A DNA stretch of 64,000 nucleotides from Naegleria gruberi (taxonomy: Eukaryota): NCBI GenBank assembly GCA_000004985.1, contig GG738900.1. The stretch is one strand, 5' to 3'. Of the stretch, positions 5,105-49,702 are shown piece by piece (positions within the stretch are counted from its first letter, which is position 1; each line of letters begins with the position of its first letter). The position numbers were made by a program, and so were the translations under genes. The notes beneath the pieces were generated by a model. It searched no databases and was not told the DNA's origin. It saw only the letters and a program-made list of their open reading frames with translations.

Positions 5105-7161
5105 TTATTCTTGATTGTTGTCAAGTAGTGAAGAATGATTTGATTTTTCTTCGAGTAGTAATTCTGTAGAGTCTTCTGAGGGTTGTTTGGTTAACACGAG
5201 AGGACTCATTGCTACAGTACTAGAGCTAGGTTCAGAGCTTTCTGATTTTGATTGAGAATTGTTGGCAACATCTGTTGAGATGGTAAGGTTTTTGACCTTC
5301 TCTGGTGTTTTCACTTCTGCAGTGGTGGAAGCTCGTGGTGTTGTCAATGTGAGGACTGGATGATCTGTTGTGATAGTATTATTATTGGATGATGTGGTGG
5401 TGTGCTTTTCAGGTGCCTTACTTGTATTGGCACTTGCAGCTGTCGTTGAGGTTTGCTTTGTGTTGTTTGTCGATGAGGCATTAGTTGTACTATTGGATGA
5501 AGATGTTGTTGTGGTAGTAGATGATGCTGTTTGTCTTGGTGTGGCCACTGATTTCTGAACTTCCTTCTTATTTTCTGGAATTCTACCTCTGAATGATGTG
5601 AACAATTCTTCATCTTCATCATCATCAGTTAGGGCTTTGGAATTGAGTGATTTTTGAGATTTCATAAACGAGACGAAATCCACTTCTTCCTCTCCTTTTT
5701 TCTTTTTTGAATGTTCTTCCTTCTTTCTATCATCCAAGTATGGATGCTTAAAGGTCAAGTGATATTGTTTGAATAGATTTTCAATCTTTTCATGTTTGTA
5801 ATCCATATCTGAATCAATGAGGACAAAGTACATTTTACCCTCTCTTTCGTCTCTCTTTCTTCTCACTAAATAGTGATAAGTCTTTCTATTTGAATTCATT
5901 AACAAACTGTCAAAGTATCCAAAAGTATCTCCACCATCTTCTACTACTGATACATAAAAAGAACCCGGTTCATTTTCTGCAAATCTTGTAATGTATGTAC
6001 CTGGTTCTTGACCATCCAATAAATTTTGTGCTTCAATTGATGACATACTTCCCCAGAAATGTTTCATATCCAAAATTGTGTTGAGAATTGGAAAAAATTG
6101 AGTTGAGAATGGTCCAAACCATTTCAAAGTTGTTTTAAAATCAATCATGGAAACAACATTATCACATGTTGGATCTATAATGTACGATATTTCATCTACC
6201 CAATTTTTCTTTGTTCTGACGTTAAAATCAAAGAATGTATCCAATGTATCAAGGAAACTATCCTTGCTCACAGAGAATATATTTCCACCAATGTTATTCT
6301 TCCAAAATTCTGCACCGAATTCATCCAAAATAGTTTCATTTGTAGTATTCAGTTGAGATTGTGTAGAGGAATCAGAATAATCCAATCCCTGTAATTCAGC
6401 ATCGTGAATGAAGGACACCAATTTCTTGTAACCAATCATTTCTTCCAAATGATGACTTGTCAAAATTTCACATTCATCCTTAATTTCGAAATATCTCTAA
6501 ACAATTATTAGAATCAATTAATATCAAATGCACAAACCTGTTTGTTATCAATATTTGACCAATCATAACCCATAGATGAAAGATTAGCATTAGAAGATGA
6601 ATTAGACATGGTTCCAGTTACAGAACTTGAACGTTTCAAACTTCTTCTGGCGTTTGCTTCAGAAATTGCAACCAAATCTTCCAAATTCTTTTTAGTTTGT
6701 TGCAAATGATTAATAATATTCTCAGTCATGACATCAAATGCCTGTTTATATCCACTCACTGTGCTTCTTGCTCCCAACAAGATATTATTATTGTTCTTTC
6801 CTGTTAGTGAGAATAATATTTGTGTGTTCTGTTTGGAAAAATTATTCGAAATGTCATCATAATATTTTACAATCTCCTCAATGTTTTTAACTGGTATTGT
6901 GAATCCTTCCAATACTCCACTTGGCGGTTTGATAATACTCAACAAATTATTACAAGTGATTCGGAACATGTTTGTATCGATGGTTCCTGCTCCTGCATTA
7001 CCAGAAATTAATAAACTGGCACTTCCACCAAGGATCATTCCTGATTGTTTGTTGTAGGGAAGTAATTCTACAAGTCCATGAGAGGCCTGACTCATATTAA
7101 AGTGTGTTCCTGGTAAATTGGTGACGAGTTGTTGCTTGTCACTTGATTGTTCTTGTCCCAT
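5105..7161 (-). CDS. STAT-like SH2-domain protein; 2 exons (6538-7161, 5105-6496) joined by a 41-nt intron at 6497-6537
   Basis: The SH2 core reads HFWGSMSSIEAQNLLDGQEPGTYITRFAENEPGSFYVSVV, with a linker-like region before it and an S/T-rich tail. Exon 1 (ATG 7161) ends ...NKQ|GTTTGT and the acceptor TTTAG|AGATAT restores the frame into the downstream ORF (…RYFEIKDECEILTSHHLEEM…). The domain order resembles the STATs described in Dictyostelium (an uncharacterised N-terminal domain, a linker, SH2, then a tail); I infer this from family knowledge. Confidence 0.6.
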
Positions 7162-9491: not shown

Positions 9492-12191
9492 ATGAGTACA
9501 ACTGCTGTTGGTCAGCAGAATCAACAGCAGGAGCAACAACAATCACAACAACAACGTTCTTCTACGCCTCCTCCCTTAATAATGCCAACGTTATCACTCT
9601 CACCGAGGCATTCATCACAACCGAATGGTTTGCAGCCATTTTCGATAGTGGTACAACGAGCGCAACCATCACCCTTATCTTCATCGTTATCAAGTATTCA
9701 GGAGCATCTCTTCTTTGTTAATAATCATAGTAATGTTCATGCGAATATAAATCTAGGTGGAGCAGAGAATGGTGTTCAGCTACAGCTGGTACAACCCTTA
9801 AACTCTGATAATAATAATATTCAAGTGGTTTGTAGATTCAGACCAATGAATGATATGGAAAAAACACAATCGGAAAAACCAATTGTTGAATTTGGAGAAA
9901 ACCAAAATTGTACTATAAAAGTAAATATCATCATACGAAAATACTTATTTACTAATTAATTAATTTAGACTAGGAGATCTGTACATAATTTTACATTTGA
10001 TAGAATTTTCAACTCTGAAACAAGGCAAGAAGACATTTTTAATGTGGTAGGAAAACCAGTGGTTGAAGGTAAGTATTCTATTAAGTAATATTTAGAATTG
10101 TTAACAATATCAGATGTTTGCAAGGGATATAATGTAAGTATGAGAAGATATTCAAATTAAAACAATCGAAATTAATAATAGGGAACTATTTTTGCTTACG
10201 GTCAAACTGGTTCAGGTTAGTATTCAATTGATTTCAACAATTTATTTAATATTATTTTAGGCAAAACATTTACAATGATGGGAGCTGGAGACTCGATATT
10301 AGGTTATTCAGAACATCCAGAATTTAAAGGTGTGATCCCAAGATCTATTGATTATTTGTTTAGATATTTAGAAAGTAATTCTGAAATCAAGTTTGCTGTC
10401 TCAATGTGTTTCGTTGAGATTTATATGGAAAGAATTAAGGATTTACTCGATCGTAAGTACTCTTTATCAATCAGTGCTTATCAATTTCAATAGCAAGCAA
10501 AAAGAATTTAAAAATTGAAAAGCGAGAACCAAGAGGAATTATTGTTAGTGGAGCAAGAGAGGAGAGAGTAACAAGTGCAAGAGAAATTTATCAATTATTA
10601 AAAATTGGAGCTTCAAACAGAGCTATTGCAGCAACAAGTAAGTAGGATGAATTTCTCCATTTCTCAAAATATAAAGAAATGAACGAGGAAAGTTCAAGAT
10701 CTCATACAATACTAATTGTAATGGTTAGTCAGAAAAATATTACAACCTCAGAAACCAAGTTTGGTAAACTGATTCTTGTCGATTTGGCAGGTAGCGAAAA
10801 AGTTAAAAAAACAGGGGCTAGTGGTTCAACTCTGGAGGAAGCAAAGCAGATCAACAAATCGTTATCTGCACTAGGAATGGTTATTACAGCTTTAACAGAC
10901 GGAAATGTAAGTCCACTCATGTTAGCATTAAATGTTCATTTCAACCAAGTCAAAACATGTACCATATAGAGATTCAAAACTCACAAGATTACTTCAAGAT
11001 TCATTGGGTGGTAACTCAAGAACAACTCTTGTGATAAATTGTTCGTTCAGCTCATTCAATGAGGAGGAAACTTTGTCTACATTGAGGTTCGGTGAAAGAG
11101 CAAAGAAAATCAAAAATAAGGCAAAGGTCAACAGAGAGCTGACTGCCAAAGAGTTGAAGCAAATGTTAGAAAAGGCGAAAGAAGAGGTTAACGAACTTAG
11201 AGATATTATAACAGGACTGAGAAATAAGCAAATTGAAGAATCAAGAAAGTTTGATGAGGAATTATTAGAAAATTCTCATATCAAACAAGAAATTGAAGTT
11301 GTTACAAAAGAAAAGGAAAAACTGAAGGAAATCATAGAGGAAATGAATGAGATTACTGTCAAACAAAGTACAAAAACTTCTAGACATAGATCCATTTCCA
11401 TATCGAGTTCTCAAAAACTTTTTAATCCAAGAAGACTGTCAATGTTCGTTTCCAGATCTGCAACTTTGTTCGAGAGTGGTGGAGACTCTCCAATGAGTGC
11501 TTGCACTGCAAACGATACGAGCGAAGCAATCTTTGATCAAACAGGGTCAGAAACCTCATCGATAGGTGATGACGAAGGAACAGACTATGCTGAGCTTTTT
11601 GAAAAAATGGAAGTTGAACGAGAAAAGACAGAATCAAAGAATAAGGCCCTACAATCTCAAGTCTCGAGTCTTACAGCTGACAATTTTGATATTGAACAGA
11701 AAAATAAGGAACTGAAAGAGCAGGTGAGAATTCTGGAGGAAATAAATAAGGAAATGGAACAGGAACATATTAGAATGCAAGAAGAGCTATTACTTAAACA
11801 AAAATCTCTAGATTCTCTGGAAGAAGATTTGAAAAAGTCCAAAAAAAACGAAACCAAATGGAAGAAGGAAACAATGGAACTAAGCGAAGTATTCAACAAA
11901 ACTGTGCAAAGCAAAGTCCGAGAGTCTGTCAGAAATCAAAATAGTTTATCTGGAAATAATAAGGTTGTGGAAATGCTGACGTTAGAAATCAAAGCTCTCA
12001 CAAGTCAGGTGTCCTTCTTCGATGTGGCTACCAGAAGTGCTTTCCGAGAGAAGTTTGGAACATTGGCTTACTCAATCTCAAAGAGTGGCGTTGTAAAACC
12101 AGAAGAAATTTTCCCTATTAACAATACTGGAGCAGCTTCTCCAAATTCCAAAGAAAGAGTATTCACTATTAATTCAAGTTTAAAACAGTAA
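9492..12191 (+). CDS. kinesin-1-like heavy chain; 8 exons (9492-9920, 9969-10068, 10114-10133, 10182-10215, 10261-10452, 10494-10637, 10677-10908, 10950-12191)
   Basis: Motor motifs are reconstructed across introns: VVCRFRPMN; FTFDRIF…VVGKPVVEG; DVCKGYN; [12 protein letters not shown]|KTFTMMG (the P-loop is split by an intron); DLLD|PSKKNL; NRAIAAT|[13 protein letters not shown]; [10 protein letters not shown]; TDGN|[25 protein letters not shown]. All introns are 41-49 nt with GTAAGT/GTAAAT/GTTAGT donors. A long C-terminal coiled-coil stalk follows. Confidence 0.85.
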
Positions 12192-16007: not shown

Positions 16008-16144
16008 TCACACTTGTCTATTTTTTAAAAAATTCATAAAAATAAAAATCAATACACTGAACTCGCTATTTGTTCGAAAATCTCCCGCCACATATTTACT
16101 TTTTGTTGTTTAGGTTCTTAGCTGAGAAAACACAAACTGTAAAA

Positions 16145-18845
16145 ATGAGTGTACCAAGGTATCGCCCAGCAGGAGGTAGTCTCACTTCGAGGTTAAATCC
16201 CTCGTTCTTTGCCCTTGCTGACAGATACCCAAGTAGTGCGGAGGAGGAAGATGAAGCAAATGAAGATGAAATTGAGGAAGAGGAGTTTGCTTTTGCTTTG
16301 CCAAAGACTGGTACTGATTTTTTGTTAGGACCTAATCCTGTACATCTTAATTCATTGTCAGCAATACCTGAACCGGTATACAATGTTGACCCAACAACAG
16401 CTAGTAGGATGATGTTACAGGATTCAGCTAGGTTAACAGGAAAAAGACCTTATCATAAAGTTGTATATGATTGTTTTGGAGTTGGTCATGGAGACGAACA
16501 TTTTGATGAGGAATCATTATTTCGATTTCTAGAAACAAATCCAATACCTTTAAATTTAGGAACAAATTGTCAGAGACAAAATCTGCCAAAAGTGACTAGC
16601 ATGGTTAATTCCGATTCTTTATTATTCGAGTCTAGGTTTGAGAGTGGAAACCTTAGAAGAGCTGTTCAAATTTACGATTATGAATATGATTTAATTTTAA
16701 AATTTGATGTTGAAACAAATGGACATACTCAATGGTTCTATTTCTCAATTCAAAATGCAAAAAGAGGAAGAAAGTACAAATTTAATATTGTAAATTATTT
16801 GAAACAAGATAGTTTATATAATCATGGCATGCTGCCATTATTTTATTCAACCAATGATGCTTTAACAAAAGGGCAAGGTTGGATCAGGTCCGGAACAGAT
16901 GTTTGTTATTATAGGAATAACATCAAACGAAAAGGAGGATCTTACTACACTCTTACATTTACCTTTGAGGTTGCACATGATAATGATGTTTGCTATTTTG
17001 CCTATTCATACCCTTACACATACACAAATTTACAAAATTATTTAAATAATTTGGAAAAAGACAAAGTGAGGAGTCAATATTTAAGAAGAAGAGTTCTATG
17101 TAATGATCTTGCTGGAAATTCATGTGATGCATTAACCATAACTTCTTTTGCTGGAGATCCTTCTGCTCTCAAAACGAGAAAAGGAATTGTTTTAACGGCA
17201 AGAGTACACCCTGGAGAATCCAACTCGAGTTGGATTATTAAGGGAGTCATCGACTTTTTAACTGGTTCGAGTATTGAATCGAAAGTATTACGAGAAAATT
17301 TCATTTTCAAAATAGTTCCAATGTTGAATCCAGATGGAGTCATAAATGGAAACTATAGATGTGCTCTTTCAGGATCTGATTTGAATAGAAAATGGCATAA
17401 TCCAAACATCAAAACTCATCCAACAATTTTCCACACAAAAAAGATGGTTTTACAATTCCAAAAAGAACGAGAAGTAGTTTTATTTTGTGATTTTCACGGA
17501 CATAGTAGGAAGAAGAACATGTTCATGTATGGATGTACTGTTTCGAAATATGGTGTGGAGAGATTACTACCCAAAATTTTCCCAAGACTTCTATGGAAGA
17601 TTTCACCTCACTTTTCATTTAAGGATTGTCATTTCGGCAAACAAAAAGGAAAGGATACAACCGCAAGAGTTGTGATGCATAAGAGTGGAGTGAAGAATGC
17701 ATTTACATTGGAGGCATCATTCTGTGGACCAGACACTGGAATACACATGGGAAGACAATTCACTTGTAAACATTTCGAGCAGATGGGCCACTACTTTTGC
17801 CAGGGTATACTTGAGTTTTGTAATCCAGAACAAACTCAAGTCAATCTAATTATCAAAGAATTAGATTTATTATTTCCAGAAAAATACAAAGATGAAGATT
17901 CCACAAGAGAGTAAGTATTTGACATTATCCAGACAAAATTAATGCCCAATTAATCACAGCAAATATTCCAGCTCAGAAGAGGATGATGATGAGCCAGTTC
18001 CACCTCCTCAGCTCATTGAGAAACTTTCCCAAATCCCTACCCCTAGAGTGTTATCCTCAAGGAGAGGATCTAATGCTTCCGAATACTCTCAATCAGTGTA
18101 CAGTTATTCCTCGGTTGGCCGAAGTAGCCAACACTCTAGTACCACTTCAATTAACTACTCCAAACCAACAATAACAGTTCCAGTAATTATTCCACCAAAA
18201 TTGAATCATTCCAATCCTCAATCAGCTCCTCCATCAGCTATCTCAGTAGGTAATACTCCAAGGACAGCTAGTTCTGCCAAAGTAATTCATCCAACACCAC
18301 CACCAGTGCCACCCAAAGATTCTGATAAGAGACCAAACCTCCTTAAGAGAAGTCAATCCTTTTCTAATAATAATCAGCTTCCAAAATCAAATAAGAATGA
18401 GAAACCAGTTGAAAAACAGAAAAAAGTGACAAAGACAGTTGTGCAAGCAAAGAAAAAACGAATTGTCAGACCAAATAATACAGCTCGCTCAATGTACAAA
18501 CCAAGACCTTACACGCCTCCAGCTATTGATATCAATCCATTTTCCTACGATACTGACAAGATAATTCAATCCTTCAAGACGACTGACAACACAAATTATG
18601 ATCCAATCATGGAGCTCATTGAAAAAGTGGAATCCATTAAAAATCTAAGAAAGGAACGAGCTATTGAAAATTTGAAACAAGCAAAATTGAAACCAATGCA
18701 AGCCAAACCTTTCAACAAATTTGCAGCCTCTCCCTCTCTCAAACCCTCAGATAATTTATTCTCAATTACGAATTCCACAACAATTAGCACGACTTCAACC
18801 AATAGCAGCCAGCTCTTTCCTAGTATTGTTTATAAAAAACGATAA
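16145..18845 (+). CDS. cytosolic carboxypeptidase (CCP/Nna1/AGBL family, M14 metallopeptidase; tubulin deglutamylase-type); 2 exons (16145-17910, ~17960/17972-18845)
   Basis: True ATG at 16145 (MSVPRYRP). The CCP N-domain carries LLFESRFESGNLRRAV and FYFSIQNAKRGRKYKFNIVN. The M14 core carries VHPGESNSSWIIKG, MLNPDGVINGNYRCALSGSDLNRKW and FCDFHGHSRKKNMFMYGC. The ORF ends …DEDSTRE at AGAGA|GTAAGT. Either acceptor (CACAG|C or TTCCAG|C) keeps the frame into the low-complexity S/P/K-rich tail ORF ending at 18845. Confidence 0.8.
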
Positions 18846-32815: not shown

Positions 32816-33068
32816 ATAACACGTTTGAGAACTAATTTGGGGTTGTGAGGTTTCAGAATATTTGTTACTATAGAATTCAATTTTGGTGGACGTTAAATGC
32901 TTCGTCATTTCTTATTACAGTTGAGGACAAACAAGCTTCACACAGAGCGTTAAATGCCACCAAAATTCTACAGTTACATCTTTAAAAAAAATACTCATTC
33001 TTTTCCTTACAAACCTTATTGATATTGATCGATCGTTATTTGCGAAAAACACTAGAGAATAAACGACG

Positions 33069-36000
33069 ATGTACGATGTTAATAAGGACGATAACAACAA
33101 ACGAAAGGCCTCTCCAACAAGAGATGCTCTCATGCAACAAAGGTTGGAACACTATAAAAAGTATAAAAACCTTTCGTCGGATGTAGATAGGGCTGATGAT
33201 CAAGGTAGTTTTATTGACGATGAAAACTTTCTTCCTGTAACACCCTCCCCTAAGAAGAGAATTGATACAGTAAAAGGAAGAGAAACACCAAGAGAGACTA
33301 CAAAGGAAACCCCAAAGCCTAGTATAACTCCAACTCCTTCCTCATCAAAGAAAGCTCACCCAAATATTCCAGTGCGGGAAAGTTTTCCTTCTCCATCCAT
33401 GAAGTCTTTGAAACAGACCTATGATAATAGTAAGCTTAAACAAGATGAAGAGATGCAGTCTCTACTAGATAAATTAAGGGAAGAAGGTGAACAAAGACAT
33501 CTTCAGCTAATCACTCTTAAGGAAAATGAAAAGGCCGAGTTTGAACAAAGAATTATGAAGAAGGCTGAAGATATTATCACCAAACATAAGGAACAATCCC
33601 AAAGAGCCCAAGAAGAAGTGTACAGAAAGGCCGAAGAGCTTATGAAGAAATATAAAGAAATGGCATCTTTCGCTGGAAAAGAAGTTGAAAAACTAAAGGA
33701 AGAAATGGCAAATCAAAAACTTCTCTATGAAAGAGATTTTCTTGAAAAGCAAGAAGCTGCTAGAAAAGTGGCCGAAGAAGAATATCAACTTAAGGTTCGA
33801 CAATATCAACTCCAAATAGAAGATCTTCAAAAAAAGAACTATTTGCAAAGAGTTGAAATGAGTAAGAATATTGACGAAAGAGCAGAACTTCTCCGAAAAA
33901 GAGCTGAAGATGCTGAAGCTAAGTTGTTAGAAGAAATGGCCAGATTTCAAGAAAAGGAAGTTGAGTTCAGAAGTGAAATTGACTCCCTTAACAAATCATT
34001 ACCATTATTAGCACAACAAAAAGCCGATGATTTAATGAGAGACTACAATCTCAATATTAAGAAGAAAGATTTTGTTCTTAGACAAGAGCAAGATAATCTT
34101 TTGAAGGAAAGAGAGAAAGAACTCAAAAACGAATACGAACAATTAAAGAAAGAATTGGAAGAAGCCAAACTTGAAAATGAAGAGAAAAAGAATCTAGAGT
34201 TCAAGAGGCTTCGTGACAAGATGGACAATGAAAAGAAGGTTTTCGAAGAAACTGTTAACGCTAGGTTTGAAAAGATGAAGAGTCAATTAGAGGCAGAAGT
34301 TGAATCGAAGAAGGATGAACTTCGACTCAAGGAAATGATGTTGAGAGATGAACTCGATAAGGCTAGATTAGATCTTTCTCACAAGGTCATTAGTGAAAAG
34401 AAGGACTTTGAAAATGATATTTTCATGAAGACTAAATCCATGATTATGGAATTTGAAAAGCAACTCGAAAAGAAAGGTGAAGTGCAGTCTGATGACCAAA
34501 AGAAACAACTTGCCAACATTTCTCGTGATGCTCTTGACAAATTAAGAGTTGAAAAAGAGGAAAGAACTCTTTTTGAAAAACAAGCAATGGAAAAGGCAAT
34601 GAATGTTATCAAGGAATTCGAAGAAAAGATGAAGAAAGAATCCGATAGAATCACTCAAGAAAAGCTTAGAGATGTTGAAGAACAAGCCAGAAGAGACAGA
34701 GAAAGAACCGAGGAAGAAGCTAAAAAGAGAAGAGAGTTCGAAGAAGATATCAAATCAAAGTATGAGATATTTAAGGAAGAATACAAACGAAACTTGGATA
34801 GAGAGCTCTTGGAAAAGAAGAGAGAAATTGATTTAGAATTTGCCAAAAAAGAAGAAGAGTTTGAAAAAGAAATGCATGAGCAAAGAAATAACATTAAACT
34901 CCAAGAAAAAGATCTTCTGAGAAAGGTAGAAGGAATCAAACACGAAAAATTACAAGAATCAATTAATCATATTGAACAACTTAGAGGTGATTTGTACAGT
35001 CAGTGGGAAAGAATTTCCAAGGAGGAAGGTAAACGTGTTCTTGAAGAAAAGGATAAAAATCAAAGGGAAATTGAAGATATGAGACGAAGATATGAAGAAA
35101 AATTAAACCTCATTAGAATGACTACTAATAGAGAAATTGATGAAGTAAGAAAGTCTCACCAAGAACTTGAAACAAAGCTGAAGTTCGACTATGAGGAAAG
35201 AGTTCAAAAATTGAATGACGAAAAGAGATTCCTTGAAAAGGAAATGCAAACCAAGATAATAGATAAGAGAAAGGAACTTGAAGAACAATTCGAAAGAAAA
35301 CTTGAAGAAGCAAAGAAAACTTTGGAGTCCTCATTAGAACGTAGGGATAGTGATGTAAAACTCAAGAAGGAAGAAATTGAATACGAAAAACTTTCCTTTG
35401 AAAGAAAGATTAGAGAGGATTACGATACTAGAATTAGAGAAATATCTACCCAATTTGAGAAGAGACAAAAAGAATATCAAGAAAATGAAATTGAGTTGAG
35501 AAGAAAACTCGAACAAGAAAAGATTGAACTTCAAAAGTTAATGGAAGATGAAAAGATGAAATACCAAGAAAGAGTTAGAATCGAAAATGAAAAGATTTTA
35601 AGAGAAAAAGAAAAATTGTTCAAAGAAGAAAAGGAAAAGATAATTGCCCAAACCGAGGAACGTGTTCAAAGTATCAGAAAGGAAACACAAGACAGCCTTT
35701 TCAATAACGACTCAAAGAGGGGTGAATATGAAAATAGTATACGAGACAATTATAGTAAGATGTTCAGAGAAAAGGAACAATATTATCTTACACAAGTTGA
35801 ATCATTAAAACAAACTCTCAAGACACAGAGAGAGGAATATGAGAACAAACTCAATGAAACAGAATTGTCACTAAGAAAGGAAAGAGATGAGGTTGATAGA
35901 CAAATGACTGAAAAGTACAATAGACTTGTTGAACAAATGAATGGCGACTCTAAGAGAGAAACCCATAAGAGAATGCAACAAGAAATTGAATTTGAAAGTG

Positions 36001-39000
36001 AAAAACTTCAATTTGAGATTAAACTTAAGAAGCAATTGGAAGATGAAAGAAAGAAGATGGAAGACAGAATTCATGAAAAGTTCCAAATGGCAGCTGAAGA
36101 AACAGAAACTCATTACAATGATATCATTAGAAATTTGAAAAATAGACTTGATGAAGAAAAGTCTATTATTGATTCAATGGGTAAGAGAGAAAAGGAACTT
36201 CAGAGAATGTATGAAGAAAAATTGCTTGATACCCAAAGACAAACAGAGTTTGCTAAAATGCAATATGAGGAAGAGTCCAAGATGAGATATACACATCTTC
36301 TTCAAGAATATACTCTCAAGGTAAGACAAGAGTTACTTGAGAAGGAAAAGAAGGAAAGAGAGGAAAGACAGAAAGAAATGGAAGAGTTGAACGCCAAGTT
36401 GGTTAGAATGGAAGAAGACAAGAGACTCTTCGAACAAGATGCTAGAGAAAGAGCTCTAGAACTTGTGAAAAAGGTTGAGGAAGATGCCAGAAGAGAAAAG
36501 CAGAAATTGGAAACATACTATAATGACCTTATTAGAAAGCTTCATGAAGAAAAGACCCTGTACAAGCAAGAAGTTGATGAACATTTGAGAATCAAGGAAA
36601 AGGAATTAAGAGCAAGCGTTGACACACTTAGAGTAAAGCTAGAACATGCAACAGATGCTAGAATCTTGGAAGTGAACGAAATTCTTGAAAAAGAACGAAA
36701 CAGATTCATGAAAGAAATGAATGACAGAGCATTGAGAGAAAAGGAGGACAGAATTGTATTTGAAAAGCATCTTCGTGAGGAGATGGAAAATGAATTCCAA
36801 CAAAGAGCCTCAATTGTTGCAGCAAATATTAAACTACAAACAGAAGAAATTGAAAGAAGAATGTATGAAACTGAAAATAATGAAAGAAATAGAATTAGAA
36901 TATTTGAAGAAAGAAGAAAAGCTTATGAGGAAGAAATTCGTGCCAAATACAATATGATTATGAGTCAAGTTGAAGAAGAACAAGAAAAGAATCTTCAAAC
37001 TGTAAAGAAAGAAATTGAAGAAGAAAGAGACCTACTCACTAAGAGACAGAATGAACTTCAAAAGCAGTTCGACTTGGTCACTATTTCTTATGAAAAGACT
37101 ATCAGAGAAAAGTATGATTCTTTGAGACAAGAACAAGATCAAAGATATAAAGATATGCTCAAACAAAAGGATTTCCAATACCAAACCGAAATTGAAGATA
37201 TGAAGAAATCAAGATCTAAGGAGGTAGAATCAATTGAAAGAGACAAGCTTGAATTTGAATCTCGATTGAGAGAAAAGTATAACCTGTTAGAAAGAGAATT
37301 GGAAGGAAAGTATATTGCCCTTCTTTCTGAAGCAGAAAATAGATACAAGAAGGATAAGCAAAAGTTAGAAACTGAAATAGACAAACTCAGAAATGAATTG
37401 CAAATTATGGATTCTCAAAGACTTGAGTATGAGCAACAAACTAGAAGAAGATATGAGGAAATTTTGGAAAAAGAAAGAAATGAAATCCTTAAAGATAAAT
37501 CTCAAATGGAAAAACAATTTAAGAAGGAAATCGATTCTAATATTGAATTATTCAACGAGAGACAAAGAATACTCGAAAAGAGCAAGTTGGATTATGAAGA
37601 GTCTGTTAGAAATAAGTACATGAGAATTTCTGAAGAAAAAGAGAATCAATTAAAGGCCGATCACGAAAGCCAAAAGATGGCGGATCAAAAGAAGTGGGCT
37701 GAAAGACAGGATGAATGGCTTCAAAAGGAGAGAGAATTCGAAACCAAGATTATTCAATATGAAGATCAAATCAAGAATAAGTATGAAGTTATTATCATGG
37801 ATAATCTCAACAAGACGCAAGCTGAAATGAGAAAGCTTAGATCTCAATTAGATGAAGAAAAGAATGCACTTCTCCAACAATTAACAGAAAAAGAAAGAGA
37901 TTTGAATGCTAAATATCAAAGATTTGAAAGAGATTGCAAATCTAACTTTGAAAAAGAAAAGAGAGAATTGATTGCTCACCATGACTCTGTTATTGAAGAA
38001 CTGAAGAAGGCTCTTGAGCAAGATAGAGCAACTTTGCAAAAGGCAGCCCAAGAAAACAGCTTGGAAATGGAAAGAAGATTGATTTCTCACGAAGAAAATA
38101 TTAGAAAACAATACGAAGATAGATATGTAGAGTTGGATGGAGTTCTTCGCAAAGCCATTGAAGATAGAGAACTACAACTACAAAACGAATGGAATAACAG
38201 ATTTGTTAAGGAACAAGAGAGAATGAATACTAATGATCTAGCAAGAATTGAGTTTGAAGATAGAACAAGAGACTACTTCTTCCAATTATTCAATAACAAG
38301 CAAGCTGCTATGGAGCTCCAAATTAATGAAGAAAAAATGAAATTAGAAAAGGAAAGAGAACAAATGAATATTGCTCTTTCAGACAGAATTCAAGAAATTA
38401 GACAAGAAAAGATTGCCTATGAAGCTGAAATTAGAGAGAAATATAATTCTCTCATCCAAAAGGTCCAAGAGGAAATTAATGTCATGTTAAAGGAAAGAGT
38501 TGAGACCGAAAAATCTGAATGGGTAGCCAGAGAGCAAACCTTCATTGAAAGAGAAACTGAATTACACAGGGAAAGAATCAAATCCGAAGAAGATACTAGA
38601 CAAAAACTTGATCAACTTTTGGATTTGGAAAAGAAAAAGTGTAATGAAATCATTGAAACCCTCCAACAAAAGATTAATGAGGAAAGACATTTGGAAAAGG
38701 TTGAGCTTTCAGAAAAGGAAAGAAAATTGGAGGAATACAAGATTGATTATGAACATGTTGTCAGAGAAAAGTACAACATTATCTTGGAAGATGCTCAAAA
38801 GCACTACAAGACAATGATTGAAGAAGCCACTGATAATTTCAATTCTGAACATGACAAACTCATCAAGGAATTCATTAAAAGAAAAGAAGAACAAGATGGT
38901 GAATTACTTGTCTTACAAAATCAATATAGAAAGGAAATCGAAGATCAGCTTATCAAGTTCCAAGAAATACACACCCAAACAATCAAGATGAAGGAAGAAC

Positions 39001-40988
39001 AATTCCATCTTGAACTTGAGGCTGTATCAGAGTCAATCAGAGAAAAGACTTTGGCAAATGACCTTGCTAGAATTGAATATGAAGAGTATGCCAAGAAGAA
39101 GTTTGAAGAAAATATCAAAGAAGAGCTCCAAAGAATTAAACTCATGGAAGAAAATATTAAGGACCGTATGAGAAAGGATTTGGAAGAAAGAGAAAGAAAA
39201 CGCATTGAAGATAGAAAATCCTTTGATGTTGAAAAGGATATCCTTGAACAAAAGATTAGATCCAAATATGAAAAGATTGCAGAAGAACAAGAAAGAGTTC
39301 ATGTTGCCCGTATAGAACAAATACAGGCTATGGTAGATCAAGAAAGAGATAATCTCGAAAGAAGAGACATTGAAAGAAAACAATTAGCTAGAGAACAAGC
39401 TGCCGAGTCTGAAGAAAAAATGAGAAAGTCTTTTGATGAAAAATTCAAACAACTAGTGGAAGAATATGAAAACAAGATTAGACAAAAGGATAGAGAAATG
39501 GTAGCTGAAAAGGATAAATTCAGTGAAGATATGAGAAAGAGAGAAGCTGAAATTACTCAAATCACAGCCGATTTAGATGAGCAAATATCTCAAAAATACA
39601 AGAAGATTCTTGACCAATCAGAAGAAGCAATTAGAAGAGAATTTGAAGTTAATGAAATGCACTTTAAGGCCGATCTCAATAAGAGGTTCGAAGATCAAAT
39701 TAGAGAACTTGAAATTGCTTCACGTATTGAACAACAAAAATACGAAGAAGATATCCAACTTAGATATGAAAGTAGAGTTAAATCTGTTGACGAAAAGTGG
39801 AGAAGTGAATTAGACATTCTCAAGAAGTTCCATGATGAAGAGATTACCAAGCTTCATGACGAAAGTAGACAACAAAGACTATTAGAACAAGAAAATAGAA
39901 CTCAATACGAGCTTGCAGTAAGAGATCAATACTTCACTAAGCAAAAGGAATTGGAGAATGAACATATCGAAATTATTCAAAGCATTAGAAAAGAAGAGGA
40001 AGAAAATAGATCCAAACTAAATGGTCTTTTAGAAGAAGAAATTCAAAGAGTCAAAGACTCTGTTTATCAAGAGAAGCTTGAAATTGAAAAGAGTTATGAC
40101 AAGAAGCTTGACGCTGTCAAAAAGTGTTTTGATGTTGATATTGCTGAAATTAAAAAGCAATTCCAAGAAAAATCCACTGTCATGGATCTTGCAAAGCTAG
40201 ATTTTGAACAAAAAACCAAAGCTAAATATGAAAAGATTCTGGCCGAAGTTCAATCCTCTTTAGAAAAGAAGTTGGATGACAGAAATAAGGAAATTGAAGA
40301 AGCTAGAAAGCAAATGCAACAAGAGAGAATGAATTATGAACTCCTAGTTAGAGAGAAGTATAATGAAACTCTGAAAGAAAAAGAAAAGCAAATGGAAGAA
40401 ATCCTTAAAGAAAGAGAAATGCTTCTCCTTGATGATGATCAAAGAAGAAATCTTGCCTCCTTAGAAAAGGAAAGAAGATTAGAACAAATGAGAATTGAAA
40501 AGGAAGAAGAAATGAGAGCCAGATTTGAAAAACAAACAGAAGAAATTAGAGAATACAGTAAAGCACAAATAGAAGAAACAATCAAACAACTTGAACTCGA
40601 AAGAAATAAGAAGGAAGAAACTGAAAAAGAAATTATGAAACTCCAACAACAAATTGCTAGTATGCAACATAGTATGGATATGTGGAAATTAGAATATCAC
40701 AAGACCACAACATTGAAATTCAAGAAATTAATGAGCGAAGTTGAGCTCAAAGCCAAACGTGAAATGGAAGAATTTGCCAGACAACAATTAGAAGAAGAAG
40801 AGAGAAGATTAACTCAAGAATTGAGAAAGAAAGATGAAGAATTGAGAAAACATAAACAAATGGAAGAAGAATTGCAGCTCAAGACCATGGAACAGCAACA
40901 ACCAAAGAGAACTCAACCTGGTGAATTTTCTGATAGTACCAGTGAAAAGAACTTCCCAATCAAAAAGGGACTCAGAAACTTTAAATAA
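33069..40988 (+). CDS. giant 2639-aa, extremely E/K/R-rich repetitive coiled-coil / single-alpha-helix-type protein; single 7.9-kb exon
   Basis: Uninterrupted ORF from a true ATG at 33069. The K/S/T/P-rich N-terminus is followed by ~2400 aa that are almost entirely E, K, R, L, Q, I and D. Degenerate motifs recur at roughly 55/110-aa spacing: (I/V)REKYN, AKYE, RNKYM, LARIEFE/LARIEYE, LEKERN. All antisense ORFs in this span are low-complexity artefacts. Confidence 0.7.
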   Translation: MYDVNKDDNNKRKASPTRDALMQQRLEHYKKYKNLSSDVDRADDQGSFIDDENFLPVTPSPKKRIDTVKGRETPRETTKETPKPSITPTPSSSKKAHPNIPVRESFPSPSMKSLKQTYDNSKLKQDEEMQSLLDKLREEGEQRHLQLITLKENEKAEFEQRIMKKAEDIITKHKEQSQRAQEEVYRKAEELMKKYKEMASFAGKEVEKLKEEMANQKLLYERDFLEKQEAARKVAEEEYQLKVRQYQLQIEDLQKKNYLQRVEMSKNIDERAELLRKRAEDAEAKLLEEMARFQEKEVEFRSEIDSLNKSLPLLAQQKADDLMRDYNLNIKKKDFVLRQEQDNLLKEREKELKNEYEQLKKELEEAKLENEEKKNLEFKRLRDKMDNEKKVFEETVNARFEKMKSQLEAEVESKKDELRLKEMMLRDELDKARLDLSHKVISEKKDFENDIFMKTKSMIMEFEKQLEKKGEVQSDDQKKQLANISRDALDKLRVEKEERTLFEKQAMEKAMNVIKEFEEKMKKESDRITQEKLRDVEEQARRDRERTEEEAKKRREFEEDIKSKYEIFKEEYKRNLDRELLEKKREIDLEFAKKEEEFEKEMHEQRNNIKLQEKDLLRKVEGIKHEKLQESINHIEQLRGDLYSQWERISKEEGKRVLEEKDKNQREIEDMRRRYEEKLNLIRMTTNREIDEVRKSHQELETKLKFDYEERVQKLNDEKRFLEKEMQTKIIDKRKELEEQFERKLEEAKKTLESSLERRDSDVKLKKEEIEYEKLSFERKIREDYDTRIREISTQFEKRQKEYQENEIELRRKLEQEKIELQKLMEDEKMKYQERVRIENEKILREKEKLFKEEKEKIIAQTEERVQSIRKETQDSLFNNDSKRGEYENSIRDNYSKMFREKEQYYLTQVESLKQTLKTQREEYENKLNETELSLRKERDEVDRQMTEKYNRLVEQMNGDSKRETHKRMQQEIEFESEKLQFEIKLKKQLEDERKKMEDRIHEKFQMAAEETETHYNDIIRNLKNRLDEEKSIIDSMGKREKELQRMYEEKLLDTQRQTEFAKMQYEEESKMRYTHLLQEYTLKVRQELLEKEKKEREERQKEMEELNAKLVRMEEDKRLFEQDARERALELVKKVEEDARREKQKLETYYNDLIRKLHEEKTLYKQEVDEHLRIKEKELRASVDTLRVKLEHATDARILEVNEILEKERNRFMKEMNDRALREKEDRIVFEKHLREEMENEFQQRASIVAANIKLQTEEIERRMYETENNERNRIRIFEERRKAYEEEIRAKYNMIMSQVEEEQEKNLQTVKKEIEEERDLLTKRQNELQKQFDLVTISYEKTIREKYDSLRQEQDQRYKDMLKQKDFQYQTEIEDMKKSRSKEVESIERDKLEFESRLREKYNLLERELEGKYIALLSEAENRYKKDKQKLETEIDKLRNELQIMDSQRLEYEQQTRRRYEEILEKERNEILKDKSQMEKQFKKEIDSNIELFNERQRILEKSKLDYEESVRNKYMRISEEKENQLKADHESQKMADQKKWAERQDEWLQKEREFETKIIQYEDQIKNKYEVIIMDNLNKTQAEMRKLRSQLDEEKNALLQQLTEKERDLNAKYQRFERDCKSNFEKEKRELIAHHDSVIEELKKALEQDRATLQKAAQENSLEMERRLISHEENIRKQYEDRYVELDGVLRKAIEDRELQLQNEWNNRFVKEQERMNTNDLARIEFEDRTRDYFFQLFNNKQAAMELQINEEKMKLEKEREQMNIALSDRIQEIRQEKIAYEAEIREKYNSLIQKVQEEINVMLKERVETEKSEWVAREQTFIERETELHRERIKSEEDTRQKLDQLLDLEKKKCNEIIETLQQKINEERHLEKVELSEKERKLEEYKIDYEHVVREKYNIILEDAQKHYKTMIEEATDNFNSEHDKLIKEFIKRKEEQDGELLVLQNQYRKEIEDQLIKFQEIHTQTIKMKEEQFHLELEAVSESIREKTLANDLARIEYEEYAKKKFEENIKEELQRIKLMEENIKDRMRKDLEERERKRIEDRKSFDVEKDILEQKIRSKYEKIAEEQERVHVARIEQIQAMVDQERDNLERRDIERKQLAREQAAESEEKMRKSFDEKFKQLVEEYENKIRQKDREMVAEKDKFSEDMRKREAEITQITADLDEQISQKYKKILDQSEEAIRREFEVNEMHFKADLNKRFEDQIRELEIASRIEQQKYEEDIQLRYESRVKSVDEKWRSELDILKKFHDEEITKLHDESRQQRLLEQENRTQYELAVRDQYFTKQKELENEHIEIIQSIRKEEEENRSKLNGLLEEEIQRVKDSVYQEKLEIEKSYDKKLDAVKKCFDVDIAEIKKQFQEKSTVMDLAKLDFEQKTKAKYEKILAEVQSSLEKKLDDRNKEIEEARKQMQQERMNYELLVREKYNETLKEKEKQMEEILKEREMLLLDDDQRRNLASLEKERRLEQMRIEKEEEMRARFEKQTEEIREYSKAQIEETIKQLELERNKKEETEKEIMKLQQQIASMQHSMDMWKLEYHKTTTLKFKKLMSEVELKAKREMEEFARQQLEEEERRLTQELRKKDEELRKHKQMEEELQLKTMEQQQPKRTQPGEFSDSTSEKNFPIKKGLRNFK

Positions 40989-41072
40989 CTTGTAAAATAT
41001 GTAAATTGTGTGAATAAATGAATAGATAATTCTTAACACAATTCTTCACGCCAATTTTACATTTTAAAAAAA

Positions 41073-43046
41073 ATGCCAAAAGAGAGACCTCCGACAATCG
41101 ACACCTCTCGACCTTCAACATCAGAGGCCACAAAGAATGATCAATCATCACCTACAAATAACACTACAAGGAGAAAATTAAAGAGGTCTAAAGTTGTTGC
41201 AACTCCAACAAGCTCGAGCGAAGAAACTCCACAATTCCCATCATCGGAAGCAATAACAAATGAACAAGTAAATACAACAAAACAACAAGATGAACCAACA
41301 ACAAAAGAACCAATAACTCCTGTAACACCTTCCGAGCAAAAAACAACAAGAAAAAGGAAATTCCATAAAAAAGAAGTTGAAACACCCACAACACCACAAA
41401 CTACGGAAGTTAAACAACCCATAATCTCACCATCAGAAGCTAAGGAACAACCTAAGCCAGTAGTACAGGAAGAAACAAAACCTCCTCCAAGCAGTAAAAT
41501 AGATAATCCAGTAGTGGATAATACTCCAACATCAACACTAACACCACCAGTCCAACAAGTTCCAAAATCTACAAGGAGAACATCAAAAAAGCCCAAGGAA
41601 ATCAAGAAAGTGACAACACCAGTTGTAGAACAGCCGAAAGCGATAAAAGAAACAAAGGGGACTAATCCTAAGCAAGAAACAAATAATAGTAATGCTAGTG
41701 ACAAACAGCCAGAATTAATTACAAGAATTTTGAAACGTCACGAAAATAGCAAGTTACAAAATGTGGAAAAACCTGTGCCAAAAAGTGTACCAAAAGAGGA
41801 AAGTGATGAGGAAGTAATGAATGTGGATAGCTTGGAATTAGATGATGAAATGAGTGATGAGGAAGAAGTAAAACCAACAAGAAACCTGAGGAGGAATTCG
41901 GAAAAACAAGCCAAAAAACCAATTTCTGAACCGATTAAAAAAGAGGCACCCAAAAAGCCAATCAGTGTACCATTAAGCGAGGAAAAATCAAAACCTTTAC
42001 CAACCGAGGATAAGAAACGAAAAGTTTCAGAGACCATTCCAAAGGAAAAAGAAGTGTTGGAAAAAAAGGAATCCAAACCTGAAACTGTTACTGTTGCTGA
42101 TGAACCTGCCAAAACTGTTGAACCAGAAACAAAAAAGCCAAAGCTCACCGAAACCACTCCAACAAACTCCTCCTCTAGACCTAGTGAAACAGTTGCACCA
42201 AAAAAACAACCAGAAACTCAACCATTAATGGAAAAAGAAATTCAAAAAGTTGAGCCACCTCAAAAACCTAAGGAAGAACCTTCTTCAGCAAAAGTTTCTT
42301 CAACTGTAACAAAGGAGAAAGATCACTCAGTTACTCAGCCGAGTAGTACAACTATTACAACCAACAACTCAAACTCGTCTGGAAAGGAAATTTCTAAAAT
42401 TCCAAAGAAGAGAATTGAATCATCTCAACCATCCCAATCTGGTCAAACTAATAATTTGCCTCAACCACAACAAACCCATCCAGAACCTTCAAATCAATCC
42501 CACAATAACCATTCACAACCTCATAGCCAAAGTAACAATTCCCACCAAGCACAATCAGATCATTATCACAATAGAGAAAATAGAGAAAACAGAGATCACA
42601 GAGATAATAGAGAAAATAGAGATCATAGACACGAAAATGATTACTTTAGATTCAGATATCGAGATCCAGAGCAAGAAAGATATAGAAGGGAGTCAAGCCT
42701 TAAACTTCCACGCTTGAAAATCCAATACGAAGATACTTTCTATGAAGCTGCAAAGGATTTAATAGTAGAACAATATGGTTCCAACAAACCAAAACAGACT
42801 TCTATCAATCCAATTGTACCACATCCAACTTTACCACCAAAAGAACAATTAGTATACGAAATTGTTTATGCCAAGGTAGCTCTGGTGGTTAAATTGAAAG
42901 AAGAAGAAAAGCGAACGATTAGTCAAAAACTAGTTCAAAAAATTGCTCCACAAGAGACAATGGAAACTCTCAAACATGAATCCAGCAAAGGGAAAATTGA
43001 AAATTATGTTGACAAGTATTTGAGGGAGAAGAAGCTAATTCAATAA
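41073..43046 (+). CDS. hypothetical low-complexity basic protein (T/P/K/E-rich) with RE/RD (RENRENRDHRDNRENRDHR) tract and conserved-looking C-terminal ~100 aa, 657 aa
   Basis: True ATG at 41073. Most of the sequence is disordered-type. The only globular-looking segment is the C-terminal …LPRLKIQYEDTFYEAAKDLIVEQYG…LVYEIVYAKVALVVKLKEEEKRTISQKLVQKIA. Confidence 0.5.
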   Translation: MPKERPPTIDTSRPSTSEATKNDQSSPTNNTTRRKLKRSKVVATPTSSSEETPQFPSSEAITNEQVNTTKQQDEPTTKEPITPVTPSEQKTTRKRKFHKKEVETPTTPQTTEVKQPIISPSEAKEQPKPVVQEETKPPPSSKIDNPVVDNTPTSTLTPPVQQVPKSTRRTSKKPKEIKKVTTPVVEQPKAIKETKGTNPKQETNNSNASDKQPELITRILKRHENSKLQNVEKPVPKSVPKEESDEEVMNVDSLELDDEMSDEEEVKPTRNLRRNSEKQAKKPISEPIKKEAPKKPISVPLSEEKSKPLPTEDKKRKVSETIPKEKEVLEKKESKPETVTVADEPAKTVEPETKKPKLTETTPTNSSSRPSETVAPKKQPETQPLMEKEIQKVEPPQKPKEEPSSAKVSSTVTKEKDHSVTQPSSTTITTNNSNSSGKEISKIPKKRIESSQPSQSGQTNNLPQPQQTHPEPSNQSHNNHSQPHSQSNNSHQAQSDHYHNRENRENRDHRDNRENRDHRHENDYFRFRYRDPEQERYRRESSLKLPRLKIQYEDTFYEAAKDLIVEQYGSNKPKQTSINPIVPHPTLPPKEQLVYEIVYAKVALVVKLKEEEKRTISQKLVQKIAPQETMETLKHESSKGKIENYVDKYLREKKLIQ

Positions 43047-47377: not shown

Positions 47378-49702
47378 ATGAAAGTATTTGTATTTGAGGC
47401 CGATGATTATGCCGAAAAGTACCTCTGTGAGAGATTGTATGCCGAGGAAAATGTAGGTTATCAATTGAATCATTGTCATCAACATGATCGACAATTTTTA
47501 TTTATCAATAAACTAGTTTGTGATTGGAACAAGTAAAACTGGAAAGGACTCTATTCCATTCGTAAATAAATTAATTCAGGTAAGGAAGATTAATAGTGAT
47601 GTAAATAATTGTTTACAACCTTTAAAAAGAATGATCCGAAGGAAATTAGGAATGCACTTATGGATGTGGATGCAATTGTATATAGATTGAAGGAGAGTAA
47701 TATTGATGATACTAGATTTGCAATCAAAGTTATTGAGGCTGCCGAATTCAATGAACCTAAAACAATGATCTTACTCTCGACAAGTATGTCTTGGGCAATG
47801 ACTCGTAAAAGTTTTACTGAAGCAGATCAAGATGATGAAGCAGAAAAACCATTAAGAAAGCCATATGAAGCTTTCACTGAAGATGCATTTGTCACAAGAA
47901 AACCTCACAACTCATTTAAAGGATTTGTTGAAATTGAAAAGAGAGTTATGAGAGCTAAATCAAAATATCTCAGAACCTTTGTGTTCTTCTGTGGAATTTT
48001 GTATGGAGAAGAGGAAGAAAAATTACATCAATGGTTTAAATTGGCTTGGAATGGAGAAGGTGACTCATTGCCTGTCTTTTTGGATGGTGGAAATTATGTT
48101 CCAATGATTCATGTGCAAGATTTAGTATCAATAACTCAAAAAACAATTGAAGAGCCACCCCAACCAAAGGACGGTGAGGATGATTATCAACAAGCATTTC
48201 TTGCAGTGGATGAATCCCAGTTGACTCAATCTCAAATAGTTGAATGCATTAGTCAAAAGTTTGGATTTAATGGAAAGGTTGAAAAGCTAGATGAAGAAGA
48301 GTGTTTAATTTATGACTACTTTGAATATTTCACAGCTGACGTTAAACTTGCCATTGGTGCTGTCAATGAATTCTCCTTTGAATGGGTTTCCAAAGAGGGG
48401 TTTGCTGAGAATTTCGACAAAATCAAGCAAGAGTTTGAAAAGAAGAGAAATCTTGCTCCTCTTAGAATTTTAATGATAGGTCCACCAGGTGCAGGAAAAT
48501 CCCACTATTCTGCTCAAATGAAGAGAAAATATAGATTGGATGTTGTGAACTCGTCTTCTGTAATTTCAGATTTTGAAGCATTGGTGAAAGAGAAGGAAGC
48601 AACCTACCATAATCTTGTTCAAGAAAAGAAAGACAAGATTGAGCACGCCAAACAATTGAGACTGCAAAAGAAGAAGGAGCTAGAAGAAAAGAAGAAAAAG
48701 CAAGAAGAAGCTAAAAACGATGGAGATGACGATGAAGACAACCAAGAACCTCCTCAAGAAGAAGATCCAGAAGAACCAGCAGAAGAGGATAAGGAAGAAG
48801 AGGAAGGTTCACCAATCTTTGTTGCAAAACAAGAATTTGAAAAATACAAGGCCATTCTTGATTTGAAAGAGAACAGTGGAAGATATAATGATACAGCAAT
48901 TACTGAAATGTTTAGATGGAAACTGTCTCAACCAAGGTTGTTGAACCATGGTTGGATACTGGATGGATTCCCAAAAACAGTTGAGCAAGCTAAACTTCTT
49001 TTTATTAAGCGTGCAGAGGGAGATGATGAACCAAAGGGTGTGGATGATCATTTGTTCCCTGATTATTGTATTATTTTCAATTGTAAAGAGAAGGTTTTGG
49101 AGGATAGATTAATCAATATAACTGATCCAACTCCAGGACACAATGACCAAGATGGTTTTAAGAGAAGACTTGAAGCCTTTAACAAGGCTAACGATATTAA
49201 CAATTTAACCACATATCTTTTGGGCTATATTGAAGAATGTGTTACTGAACAAAAGAGACAGTGTATAACGAAGGAAGTAGTTTTTGAAACTGAAAGAGAT
49301 GAAAAAGAAATACTGACCGAAGTTAAGGAGTTTTTGGGTAAGCCGCACAACTATGGTCCAACAGAGAAGGAATTAAAAGAAAAGGAGAGAAGAAGAGCTG
49401 CCAGAGAAGATGAACAACAAAAACAAGAACAACAGAAGCACCAAAATGCTTTGGAAAGAAAGAGAAAACAAGCAGAAGAAAGAGAAAGAGTATTAAGAAG
49501 TGATGCTGAAAGACTTGAAGAAATAAGAAAGCAAGAGAAAATCATGCTTGAAGTCAAATCTCAACCACTTAGAGTTTACCTTATGGAAAATGTCATTCCA
49601 GTTCTTACCAAAGGGTTGATTGAAGTGTGTCAAATGCAACCAGAAGATCCTGTTGATTATCTTGCTGAATGGTTGTTCAAACAAATTCCTGATGATAAAT
49701 AA
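47378..49702 (+). CDS. AK7: adenylate kinase 7 (AK7)-type protein: N-terminal Rossmann-like domain, adenylate kinase core, C-terminal Dpy-30 motif; 3 exons (47378-47452, 47517-47579, 47630-49702)
   Basis: The match to AK7 runs along the length. MKVFVFEADDYAEKYL aligns with RVFINLLDSY; FVIGTSKTGKDSIPF with FQIVGTLSKPDSPRP; PKTMILLSTSMSWAMT with RKLFILLSTVMTWA; HQWFKLAWNGEGDSLPVF…AVDES with HTFFKMAWLGEIPALPVF…AVDES. The P-loop reads ILMIGPPGAGKS and the LID region GWILDGFPKTVEQAKLLF. The Dpy-30 motif reads PLRVYLMENVIPVLTKGLIEVCQMQPEDPVDYLAEWLF. The true ATG exon and a 63-nt second exon were found upstream of the TTG-initiated track ORF. Introns are 64 and 50 nt with GTAGGT and GTAAGG donors. 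Confidence 0.85.

Follow-up and report, generated by a model that had tools for sequence, protein, structure and literature searches.

Introduction

Microtubule crosslinkers of the PRC1/MAP65/Ase1 family (Pfam PF03999; PDB entries 3NRX, 4L3I and 5KMG) consist of a head, a helical rod and a microtubule-binding domain, in this order. PRC1 is regulated by cyclin-dependent kinases (CDKs), and its rod comprises roughly 270 residues. Here, we describe a gene from Naegleria gruberi (assembly GCA_000004985.1, contig GG738900.1) that is located at 33069..40988 on the plus strand of an analysed stretch of 64,000 nucleotides, hereafter termed the window, and that encodes a protein of 2639 residues with the same overall order of elements, the microtubule-binding domain being present only in its relatives. 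The relatives combine the C-terminal rod of the large protein (45-60% identity, without gaps) with a PRC1-type domain, and the large protein shares with PRC1 a head rich in S/T-P sites. On the other hand, its rod extends over ~2450 residues as a continuous array of 55-residue hendecad units, in contrast to the folded helical bundles of PRC1, and it exhibits no detectable similarity to the dimerisation or rod regions of the latter. As judged from sequence comparison, the gene appears to encode a giant protein of a lineage related to PRC1/MAP65, new with regard to its 55-residue hendecad rod and to the absence of the family's defining microtubule-binding domain in N. gruberi.

Non-heptad coiled coils, e.g., the tetrabrachion stalk, the hendecad segments of intermediate filaments and the bacterial proteins Scy and FilP, have in common with the large protein a period of 3.66-3.68 residues, a 4-4-3 spacing of the a/d(e)/h type, the near-untwisted pair of helices implied by these features and a longer super-repeat composed of non-heptad units. 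The examples known to us span tens to a few hundred residues, while the N. gruberi protein, a predicted coiled coil, comprises ~213 hendecads in succession that are practically free of stutters.

Binders that match a polymer lattice, such as the MAP7 helix, tropomyosin and nebulin on actin, and the CCDC39/40 ruler of 96 nm in axonemes, constitute another group for comparison, with a repeat that equals the spacing of the polymer subunits and resides in an elongated helix. They share no sequence similarity with the large protein. The microtubule-binding helix of MAP7 is basic, whereas the rod of the large protein is acidic. MAP7 uses 53 residues of this helix per tubulin dimer (PMC8985661), compared with 55 residues per module in the large protein. 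Single alpha-helix (SAH) domains and trichohyalin-like proteins, finally, resemble it in a very high content of E, K and R and in ion pairs between positions i and i+4. They differ from the large protein in that the latter possesses a conserved hydrophobic seam with aromatic core positions; furthermore, it gave no Pfam TPH or trichohyalin-type match.

The Gene and the Layout of Its Product

The gene is a complete single-exon open reading frame (ORF) that runs from ATG to TAA and predicts a product of 324 kDa with an isoelectric point (pI) of 5.5. In full agreement with a first-pass annotation prepared from the letters of the window, it is the longest ORF present, the runner-up encoding 908 residues. 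An in-frame TAA is found 6 nt upstream of the ATG, the remaining five frames contain 80-372 stops each across the same interval, and the chance of an open frame of 2639 codons, calculated from the base composition of the window, is ~1e-91. The intron signals GTAAGT and GTATGT do not occur in the ORF, while the kinesin gene at 9492-12191 (+) is interrupted at least seven times by introns that measure 39-48 nt and follow the consensus GTAAGT...AG; at the level of sequence, the gene can thus rightly be described as intronless among intron-bearing neighbours, as had been done in the first-pass annotation. The additional concern that the region might be prone to slippage and mis-assembly proved unfounded because its DNA repeats are old, short and diverged: in the large gene, TRF detected only arrays of up to 51 nt, the best internal direct repeats measure 25-56 nt at 62-88% identity, and the window does not contain a single N. 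In the window-wide composition profile, the region 33000-42000 is conspicuous for a strong purine bias of the coding strand (A 45.5%; AT skew up to 0.43, GC skew 0.31). The supplements of a Naegleria preprint were searched for peptides of the large protein, and none was detected.

The protein is enriched in E (19.4%), K (13.5%), L (9.2%), R (9.0%), Q (7.2%), D (5.9%) and I (5.8%). Since these residues sum up to 70%, the earlier wording of a nearly pure E/K/R/L/Q/I/D composition captured the enrichment and overstated its extent. Three parts can be distinguished, all encoded on the plus strand. The first is a non-helical head (residues 1-140, 33069..33488) with a pI of 9.0, 13 Pro residues and eight S/T-P sites, among them SPTR and SPKK, as well as the basic patches KRK and PKKR. 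By their sequence, the S/T-P sites may be of the CDK type and a basic patch may act like a nuclear localisation signal. The head is followed by an alpha-helical rod (residues 141-2611, 33489..40901) with an unbroken hendecad (11/3) hydrophobic seam; residues 141-2605 (2465 residues) contain one Pro and 12 Gly, carry a net charge of -81 and have a pI of 5.4. The species-specific end (residues 2612-2639 plus stop, 40902..40988) reads PKRTQPGEFSDSTSEKNFPIKKGLRNFK and marks the point at which homology to the relatives breaks off; a slightly longer end segment of 34 residues (2606-2639) has a pI of 9.8.

A 55-Residue Repeat

Autocorrelation of the protein using BLOSUM scores and 100 shuffles as reference yielded peaks at lags of 55 (z = 15.3), 110 (z = 13.8) and 165 residues (z = 9.3), accompanied by minor peaks at 11, 22, 44, 66 and 77. 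The 55/110 register is sustained from about residue 330 to residue 2400, and lags that fall out of register are mostly multiples of 11. An iterated hidden Markov model (HMM) of the 55-mer recovered 20 strong cores between residues 368 and 2573 (34170..40787), a span of 40.1 x 55 residues that corresponds to ~40 tandem modules of five hendecads each. Among the 19 distances between neighbouring cores, 13 are divisible exactly by 55 and 14 by 11. The modules of 55/110 residues proposed in the first-pass annotation are therefore confirmed as an ordered periodicity that involves ~40 copies of a 55-residue unit.

The core of the module is characterized by the motif [LI]-x-[YF]-E-x-x-[IV]-R-x-K-[YF], of which the previously noted motifs REKYN (four occurrences), AKYE (one) and LARIE[FY]E (two) are all variants. 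If the sequence is broken into rows of 55 residues, the motif stays column-constant through 20 consecutive units (1100 residues; rows 1261-2361) within the most regular block (residues 1261-2416, 36849..40316), which means that net indels are zero across these rows. Units of types A and B alternate and thereby generate the 110-residue period. Neither the 55-residue super-repeat nor its motif was found in the literature searched, which also held nothing relevant on hendecads combined with microtubules.

An Unbroken Hendecad Seam Along the Rod

When the strong hydrophobic residues between positions 330 and 2420 were subjected to Fourier analysis, a single peak emerged at a period of 3.66 residues with a power of 9.2, compared with a shuffle maximum of 2.0. 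In 220-residue windows along the rod, power at period 3.667 amounted to 1.5-4.5, whereas power at period 3.5 was 0.00-0.24 in every case and reached 0.54 only at the boundary between head and rod (residues 111-330). The 3.66 period is present in each window from residue 111 to ~2530 (the final one starting at residue 2311), and the 11/3 phase drifts slowly and without abrupt break from about residue 100 to 2450. Within the 55-mer, the hydrophobic columns 4, 8, 11/12, 15/16, 19, 22, 26/27, 29/30, 33, 37, 40/41, 44/45, 48, 52 and 55/1 make up 15 evenly spaced core columns that follow a 4-4-3 hendecad pattern and leave no loop-sized gap. These properties identify the rod as an unbroken hendecad (11/3) helix whose surface is salt-bridged like that of SAH domains, and its ~213 consecutive in-phase hendecads would represent an extreme and unusually clean natural non-heptad coiled coil. 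Paired rod helices should be nearly untwisted and ~0.33-0.37 micrometres long, because by established coiled-coil geometry an 11/3 stripe runs almost parallel to the helix axis.

The first-pass annotation had predicted very long single alpha-helices or coiled coils. The long, charged helical rod is borne out, but it belongs to neither of the usual types. A classical heptad coiled coil of the myosin, SMC or golgin type was rejected in view of the near absence of power at period 3.5. As to the other type, the protein could be a monomeric SAH or entropic spacer that serves as a long stiff linker, and some of its features would suit such a role: 48% of the residues are charged, pairs of opposite charge at i and i+4 are enriched (z = 7.2 for E/D to K/R and 11.2 for K/R to E/D), and Pro and Gly are almost absent. 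A helix devoid of a seam is, however, ruled out by the strong hydrophobics, which account for 27% of the residues and form a phase-coherent 11/3 stripe over ~2350 residues. The aromatic core positions of the 55-mer are conserved, the stripe is kept in the homologues, and a single chain (residues 1261-1700) modelled with AlphaFold2 (AF2) does not stay extended but folds back and buries the stripe, all of which renders the monomeric SAH distinctly unlikely. With regard to actual pairing of helices, the burial is no more than suggestive.

The same model, which is >97% helical with a predicted local distance difference test score (pLDDT) of 80, consists of three antiparallel helices and thus resembles what would be expected for a string of spectrin-like three-helix bundles of the kind found in spectrin or the PRC1 rod, one per 110 residues, and hence for a shorter, beaded molecule. 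The 110-residue period is indeed close to the 106 residues of a spectrin repeat, and the C-terminal domain of the family has a spectrin fold. Yet the two turns of the model are of low confidence (pLDDT <50) and are separated by 144 residues, a distance that does not fit the 55/110 period; the fundamental repeat comprises 55 residues and not 110; the evenly spaced core columns of the 55-mer provide no place for a loop; with a single Pro in 2465 residues and very few Gly, there is virtually nothing to make turns from; and no Pfam Spectrin match was obtained. A spectrin-repeat rod was accordingly discarded as highly improbable.

Relatives of the Large Protein

The large protein itself gave no usable Pfam match (E values up to 1; only a spurious hit to DUF7722 with E = 0.65) and no PDB match in a phmmer search at 0.01. 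Affiliation with SMC, trichohyalin, plectin-like or centrosomal protein families, for which a search had been suggested, is hence not borne out by Pfam or PDB. A word-indexed search with the full-length protein returned zero matches as well. This result is a false negative, since only the 8000 candidates richest in common words were scored and the candidate list was saturated, and an exhaustive phmmer search later did find homologues. As the indexed search missed every true homologue, negatives obtained in this way are unreliable for low-complexity proteins.

The exhaustive search, in which residues 1261-2460 were compared with 1.84 billion representative sequences, yielded four matches only (P0001-P0004), all of them fragments from microbial-eukaryote sources. 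P0001 is a positional orthologue of residues 2012-2241 (39102..39791), with which it is colinear at 33% identity over 230 residues and 0 gaps, and P0002 is colinear with residues 2350-2611 at 45% identity over 262 residues, again with 0 gaps. A profile of the C-terminal region led to two further proteins, P0028 and P0029, the former sharing 60% identity with the final 167 residues of the rod, and a metagenome scan contributed L006 with 56% identity over 270 residues and 0 gaps. The C-terminal rod (residues 2342-2611, 40092..40901) is thus kept in L006, P0002 and P0028. The rod fragments of the homologues (20-56% identity) retain the lags of 55, 110 and 165 residues together with the hydrophobic period of 3.66-3.68, and this, combined with the gapless alignments, suggests selection on the geometry of the rod.

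P0001 originates from an exon-like block of ~770 nt bounded by stops (L001 684-1451; GCA_006365035.1, contig VFQO010024716.1). The gene may contain introns in the organism concerned; alternatively, the contig may be chimeric. Another frame of this 1.6-kb contig contains a fragment that resembles a short-chain dehydrogenase, as recognized by eye only.

The Relatives Carry a PRC1-Type Domain

The end of the rod is formed by a highly conserved junction module (residues 2532-2611, 40662..40901; HSMDMWKLEYHKTTT..KF.KLM.EVELKAKREMEEFAR..LEEEE..). In P0002, P0028, P0029 and L006, this module (consensus HSMDxWKLxYHK...EVEL.AK.EMEEFAR; 36 invariant columns across four sequences) runs on into a conserved domain of ~165 residues. 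P0028 matches Pfam MAP65_ASE1 with 43.7 bits (E = 2e-11), well above the curated cut-off of 26.9. For the tail of P0002, the top three PDB matches are all PRC1, including the microtubule-bound structure 5KMG (5kmg_P, E = 5e-4). In the AF2 model of P0028 (pLDDT 80), rod and junction form one helix (residues 2-202) that enters a helical bundle, and a Foldseek search with this model returned PRC1 as the top four PDB matches with probabilities of 0.97-1.0. Pfam, PDB sequence search and fold search thus agree that the C-terminal domain of the relatives is the spectrin-fold microtubule-binding domain of PRC1/MAP65/Ase1.

Rod plus junction gave no significant match to the rod positions of the Pfam model MAP65_ASE1, P0002 reaching only 13 bits (E = 0.04) over profile positions 111-438. 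Junction and rod are, however, clearly homologous to proteins bearing the PRC1-type domain, and the large protein is a member of a rare protist family whose other members carry this domain. An interpretation of the junction module as the last unit of the 55-residue array could not be established. The full HMM assigns 31-47 bits to the module, but in leave-one-out runs it mostly falls below the shuffle maximum of 8.1 bits (N. gruberi -1.5, P0029 5.6, P0028 13.7), which is exceeded by the P0028 junction only.

P0029 deserves separate mention as it is encoded by a complete gene (L004 3105-4778; JGI 3300062347, contig Ga0606064_0171). Its 557 residues comprise a disordered head rich in Q, H, S and P and a short coil, followed by the junction and the PRC1-like domain; a long rod is missing, and its head shows no homology to that of the large protein (E = 1.1). 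The PRC1-like domain of P0029 reaches only 16.6 bits on PF03999. Proteins of this kind would be missed by surveys relying on gathering thresholds, and a short PRC1-like gene could therefore hide in Naegleria. A survey of this type, conducted with PF03999 at the gathering threshold, reported PRC1 as one of several crosslinkers absent from Naegleria, with no match tabulated for N. gruberi or N. fowleri; its authors pointed out that homology residing in coiled-coil sequence escapes this approach (10.1101/2024.01.08.573270).

The Missing Tail

Similarity of the N. gruberi ORF to P0028 (60% identity) extends as far as base 40901 ('...MEQQQ'); beyond this point, the ORF contributes a basic stretch of 28 unrelated residues and the stop. 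Two ways of restoring a tail were considered and rejected. The next ORF (41073-43046, plus strand; 657 residues), which begins 84 nt past the stop, is of low complexity and rich in P, S, T, K and E, while its C-terminal ~130 residues are more ordinary; it has no Pfam match, is unrelated to P0002 and the other PRC1-like tails and gave no tblastn match to any of them. A cryptic intron that bridges the stop is not indicated either, given the absence of GTAAGT and GTATGT, the mere 84 nt to the next ATG and the fact that the tail occurs nowhere in the window.

Loss of the PRC1-type domain might also signify that the gene is a decaying relic on its way to a pseudogene. Apart from the missing tail, this would be compatible with, and could explain, the absence of the protein from public protein sets: no N. 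gruberi entry matched the ORF in any of the homology searches, even though the product of a neighbouring gene for an AK7-type adenylate kinase is present in the databases at 100% identity. In addition, neither the exact ORF nor three alternative starts had a record in a collection of 15 billion sequences. Set against this, 56% of the codons are one mutation away from a stop, and the 7.9-kb frame is open in spite of 1625 single-nucleotide routes to termination, an outcome with a probability of 0.004 at 1% neutral divergence. Hendecad phase and 55-residue register are intact throughout, and the C-terminal rod has retained 45-60% identity to the relatives with no indels. Decay appears very improbable on these grounds; the open frame and the intact phase and register rather argue for continuing selection on the gene.

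Proposed Function

The earlier assignment of the protein to molecular rulers, spacers and scaffolds is reasonable for an ordered helical rod, while its extension to the centrosome or basal body is not substantiated, nothing having been found that links the protein to either structure. The sole functional link that emerged from sequence comparison points to the PRC1/MAP65 family of microtubule crosslinkers and runs via the domain-bearing relatives. We therefore favour, with a probability of about 0.5, the view that the large protein is a giant, tail-less relative of the PRC1 family that acts as a scaffold in the microtubule system. It would work as a long scaffold or spacer in the microtubule cytoskeleton, i.e., in the spindle or the flagellate array. 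At 0.15 nm per residue, a module is estimated to measure ~8.2 nm and the array ~330 nm, such that one module would correspond to one tubulin dimer. An untwisted rod would keep one face outward at each module, and rods might follow a protofilament in register or pack side by side, staggered by one tubulin dimer. Attachment in N. gruberi could be achieved via the rod itself, the short basic end or a partner protein.

A number of observations weigh against this proposal. The N. gruberi protein is devoid of the microtubule-binding domain, and the tails of P0002, P0028 and P0029 have no tblastn match in the window. The homology searches retrieved no orthologue from Naegleria, and all rod-bearing homologues are fragments, none of which combines a full-length giant rod with a tail in one piece. 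Because only ~40-60% of the residues at core positions are hydrophobic, dimerisation of the rod is inferred rather than shown. Being acidic, the rod is poorly suited to direct electrostatic binding to the outer surface of microtubules, which is acidic as well. Finally, the correspondence of a 55-residue module to 8.2 nm is a numerical one only.

A more specific variant, which we put forward tentatively and consider doubtful, holds that the rod is a ruler commensurate with the microtubule lattice in the way tropomyosin and nebulin are on actin. One module would span exactly one tubulin dimer, a length of ~40 dimers or ~330 nm would be measured or templated, and the family would have arisen from a 55-residue unit that expanded inside the rod of a crosslinker of the PRC1 type. 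Here, the hendecad design would cancel supercoiling so that ~40 identical faces align on a straight protofilament.

The protein might, alternatively, function independently of microtubules as a self-assembling striated-fibre or lamina-like protein, with the 55-residue period of charge and motif setting the axial stagger between rods in analogy to the 28/196-residue repeats of the myosin rod; the product would be a paracrystalline fibre, e.g., the flagellar rootlet (rhizoplast) or a nuclear scaffold. Naegleria flagellates make a large striated rootlet, and a long rod preceded by a disordered, phosphorylatable head is reminiscent of intermediate-filament proteins. The charges along the rod are coherently periodic at 7.82-7.87 residues, equal to 55/7, and the lack of a microtubule-binding domain in the N. 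gruberi copy would pose no difficulty. However, fusion to a PRC1-type microtubule-binding domain is the norm in the family, the known major rootlet protein has a mass of ~170 kDa and not of 324 kDa, and no similarity to intermediate-filament proteins, SF-assemblin or rootletin was detected in Pfam or PDB. Overall, we regard a striated fibre as possible and rather unlikely, and the PRC1-related microtubule scaffold as the preferred reading.

Genomic Neighbourhood

The neighbours of the large gene are eukaryotic. Several genes related to microtubules or cilia are found no more than 25 kb away from it, namely those for the kinesin (9492-12191, +), a cytosolic carboxypeptidase (16070-17914, +) of the tubulin deglutamylase family and the AK7-type adenylate kinase (47609-49702, +). 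Their presence may be coincidental. Genes of N. gruberi contain on average less than one intron, and set against this value the kinesin gene is unusually intron-dense. The product of ORF 47609-49702, which contains a Dpy-30 motif, is 100% identical to the AK7-type adenylate kinase of N. gruberi, in accordance with the origin of the window, and has orthologues in N. fowleri (66% identity), N. lovaniensis (64%), Willaertia (50%) and Acrasis (41%). Synteny via this neighbour was tried as a route to an N. fowleri orthologue of the large gene and abandoned: on contig VFQX01000041.1, the region upstream of the AK7 orthologue is rearranged, while the downstream genes (SPRY/Ank, epimerase) are retained. 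A retroelement gene encoding reverse transcriptase and RNase H is located at the synteny break (L003 1-783, same contig).

ORF 5105-6463 (-) encodes a Cbl_N2 EF-hand-like region together with an SH2 domain, an arrangement like that of Cbl-TKB or the STAT linker, and shows a weak match to IBP39; RING was not detected in this ORF. Searches for Rfam families and tRNA genes throughout the window were negative.

Significance

The spindle of Naegleria consists of bundled microtubules without centrioles, and PRC1 has been reported missing from the genus. Against this background, the large gene is a candidate for a bundling or scaffolding factor, and the PRC1-family lineage would be present in Naegleria in a form that is invisible to domain-based surveys. 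The gene is apparently absent from public protein sets, which illustrates that giant proteins of low complexity can escape annotation as well as word-indexed searches. Irrespective of function, the in-phase hendecad array may be useful for structural and design work. The relation of the 55-residue module to the 8-nm tubulin repeat, in turn, offers a testable idea of how long helices might read the microtubule lattice.

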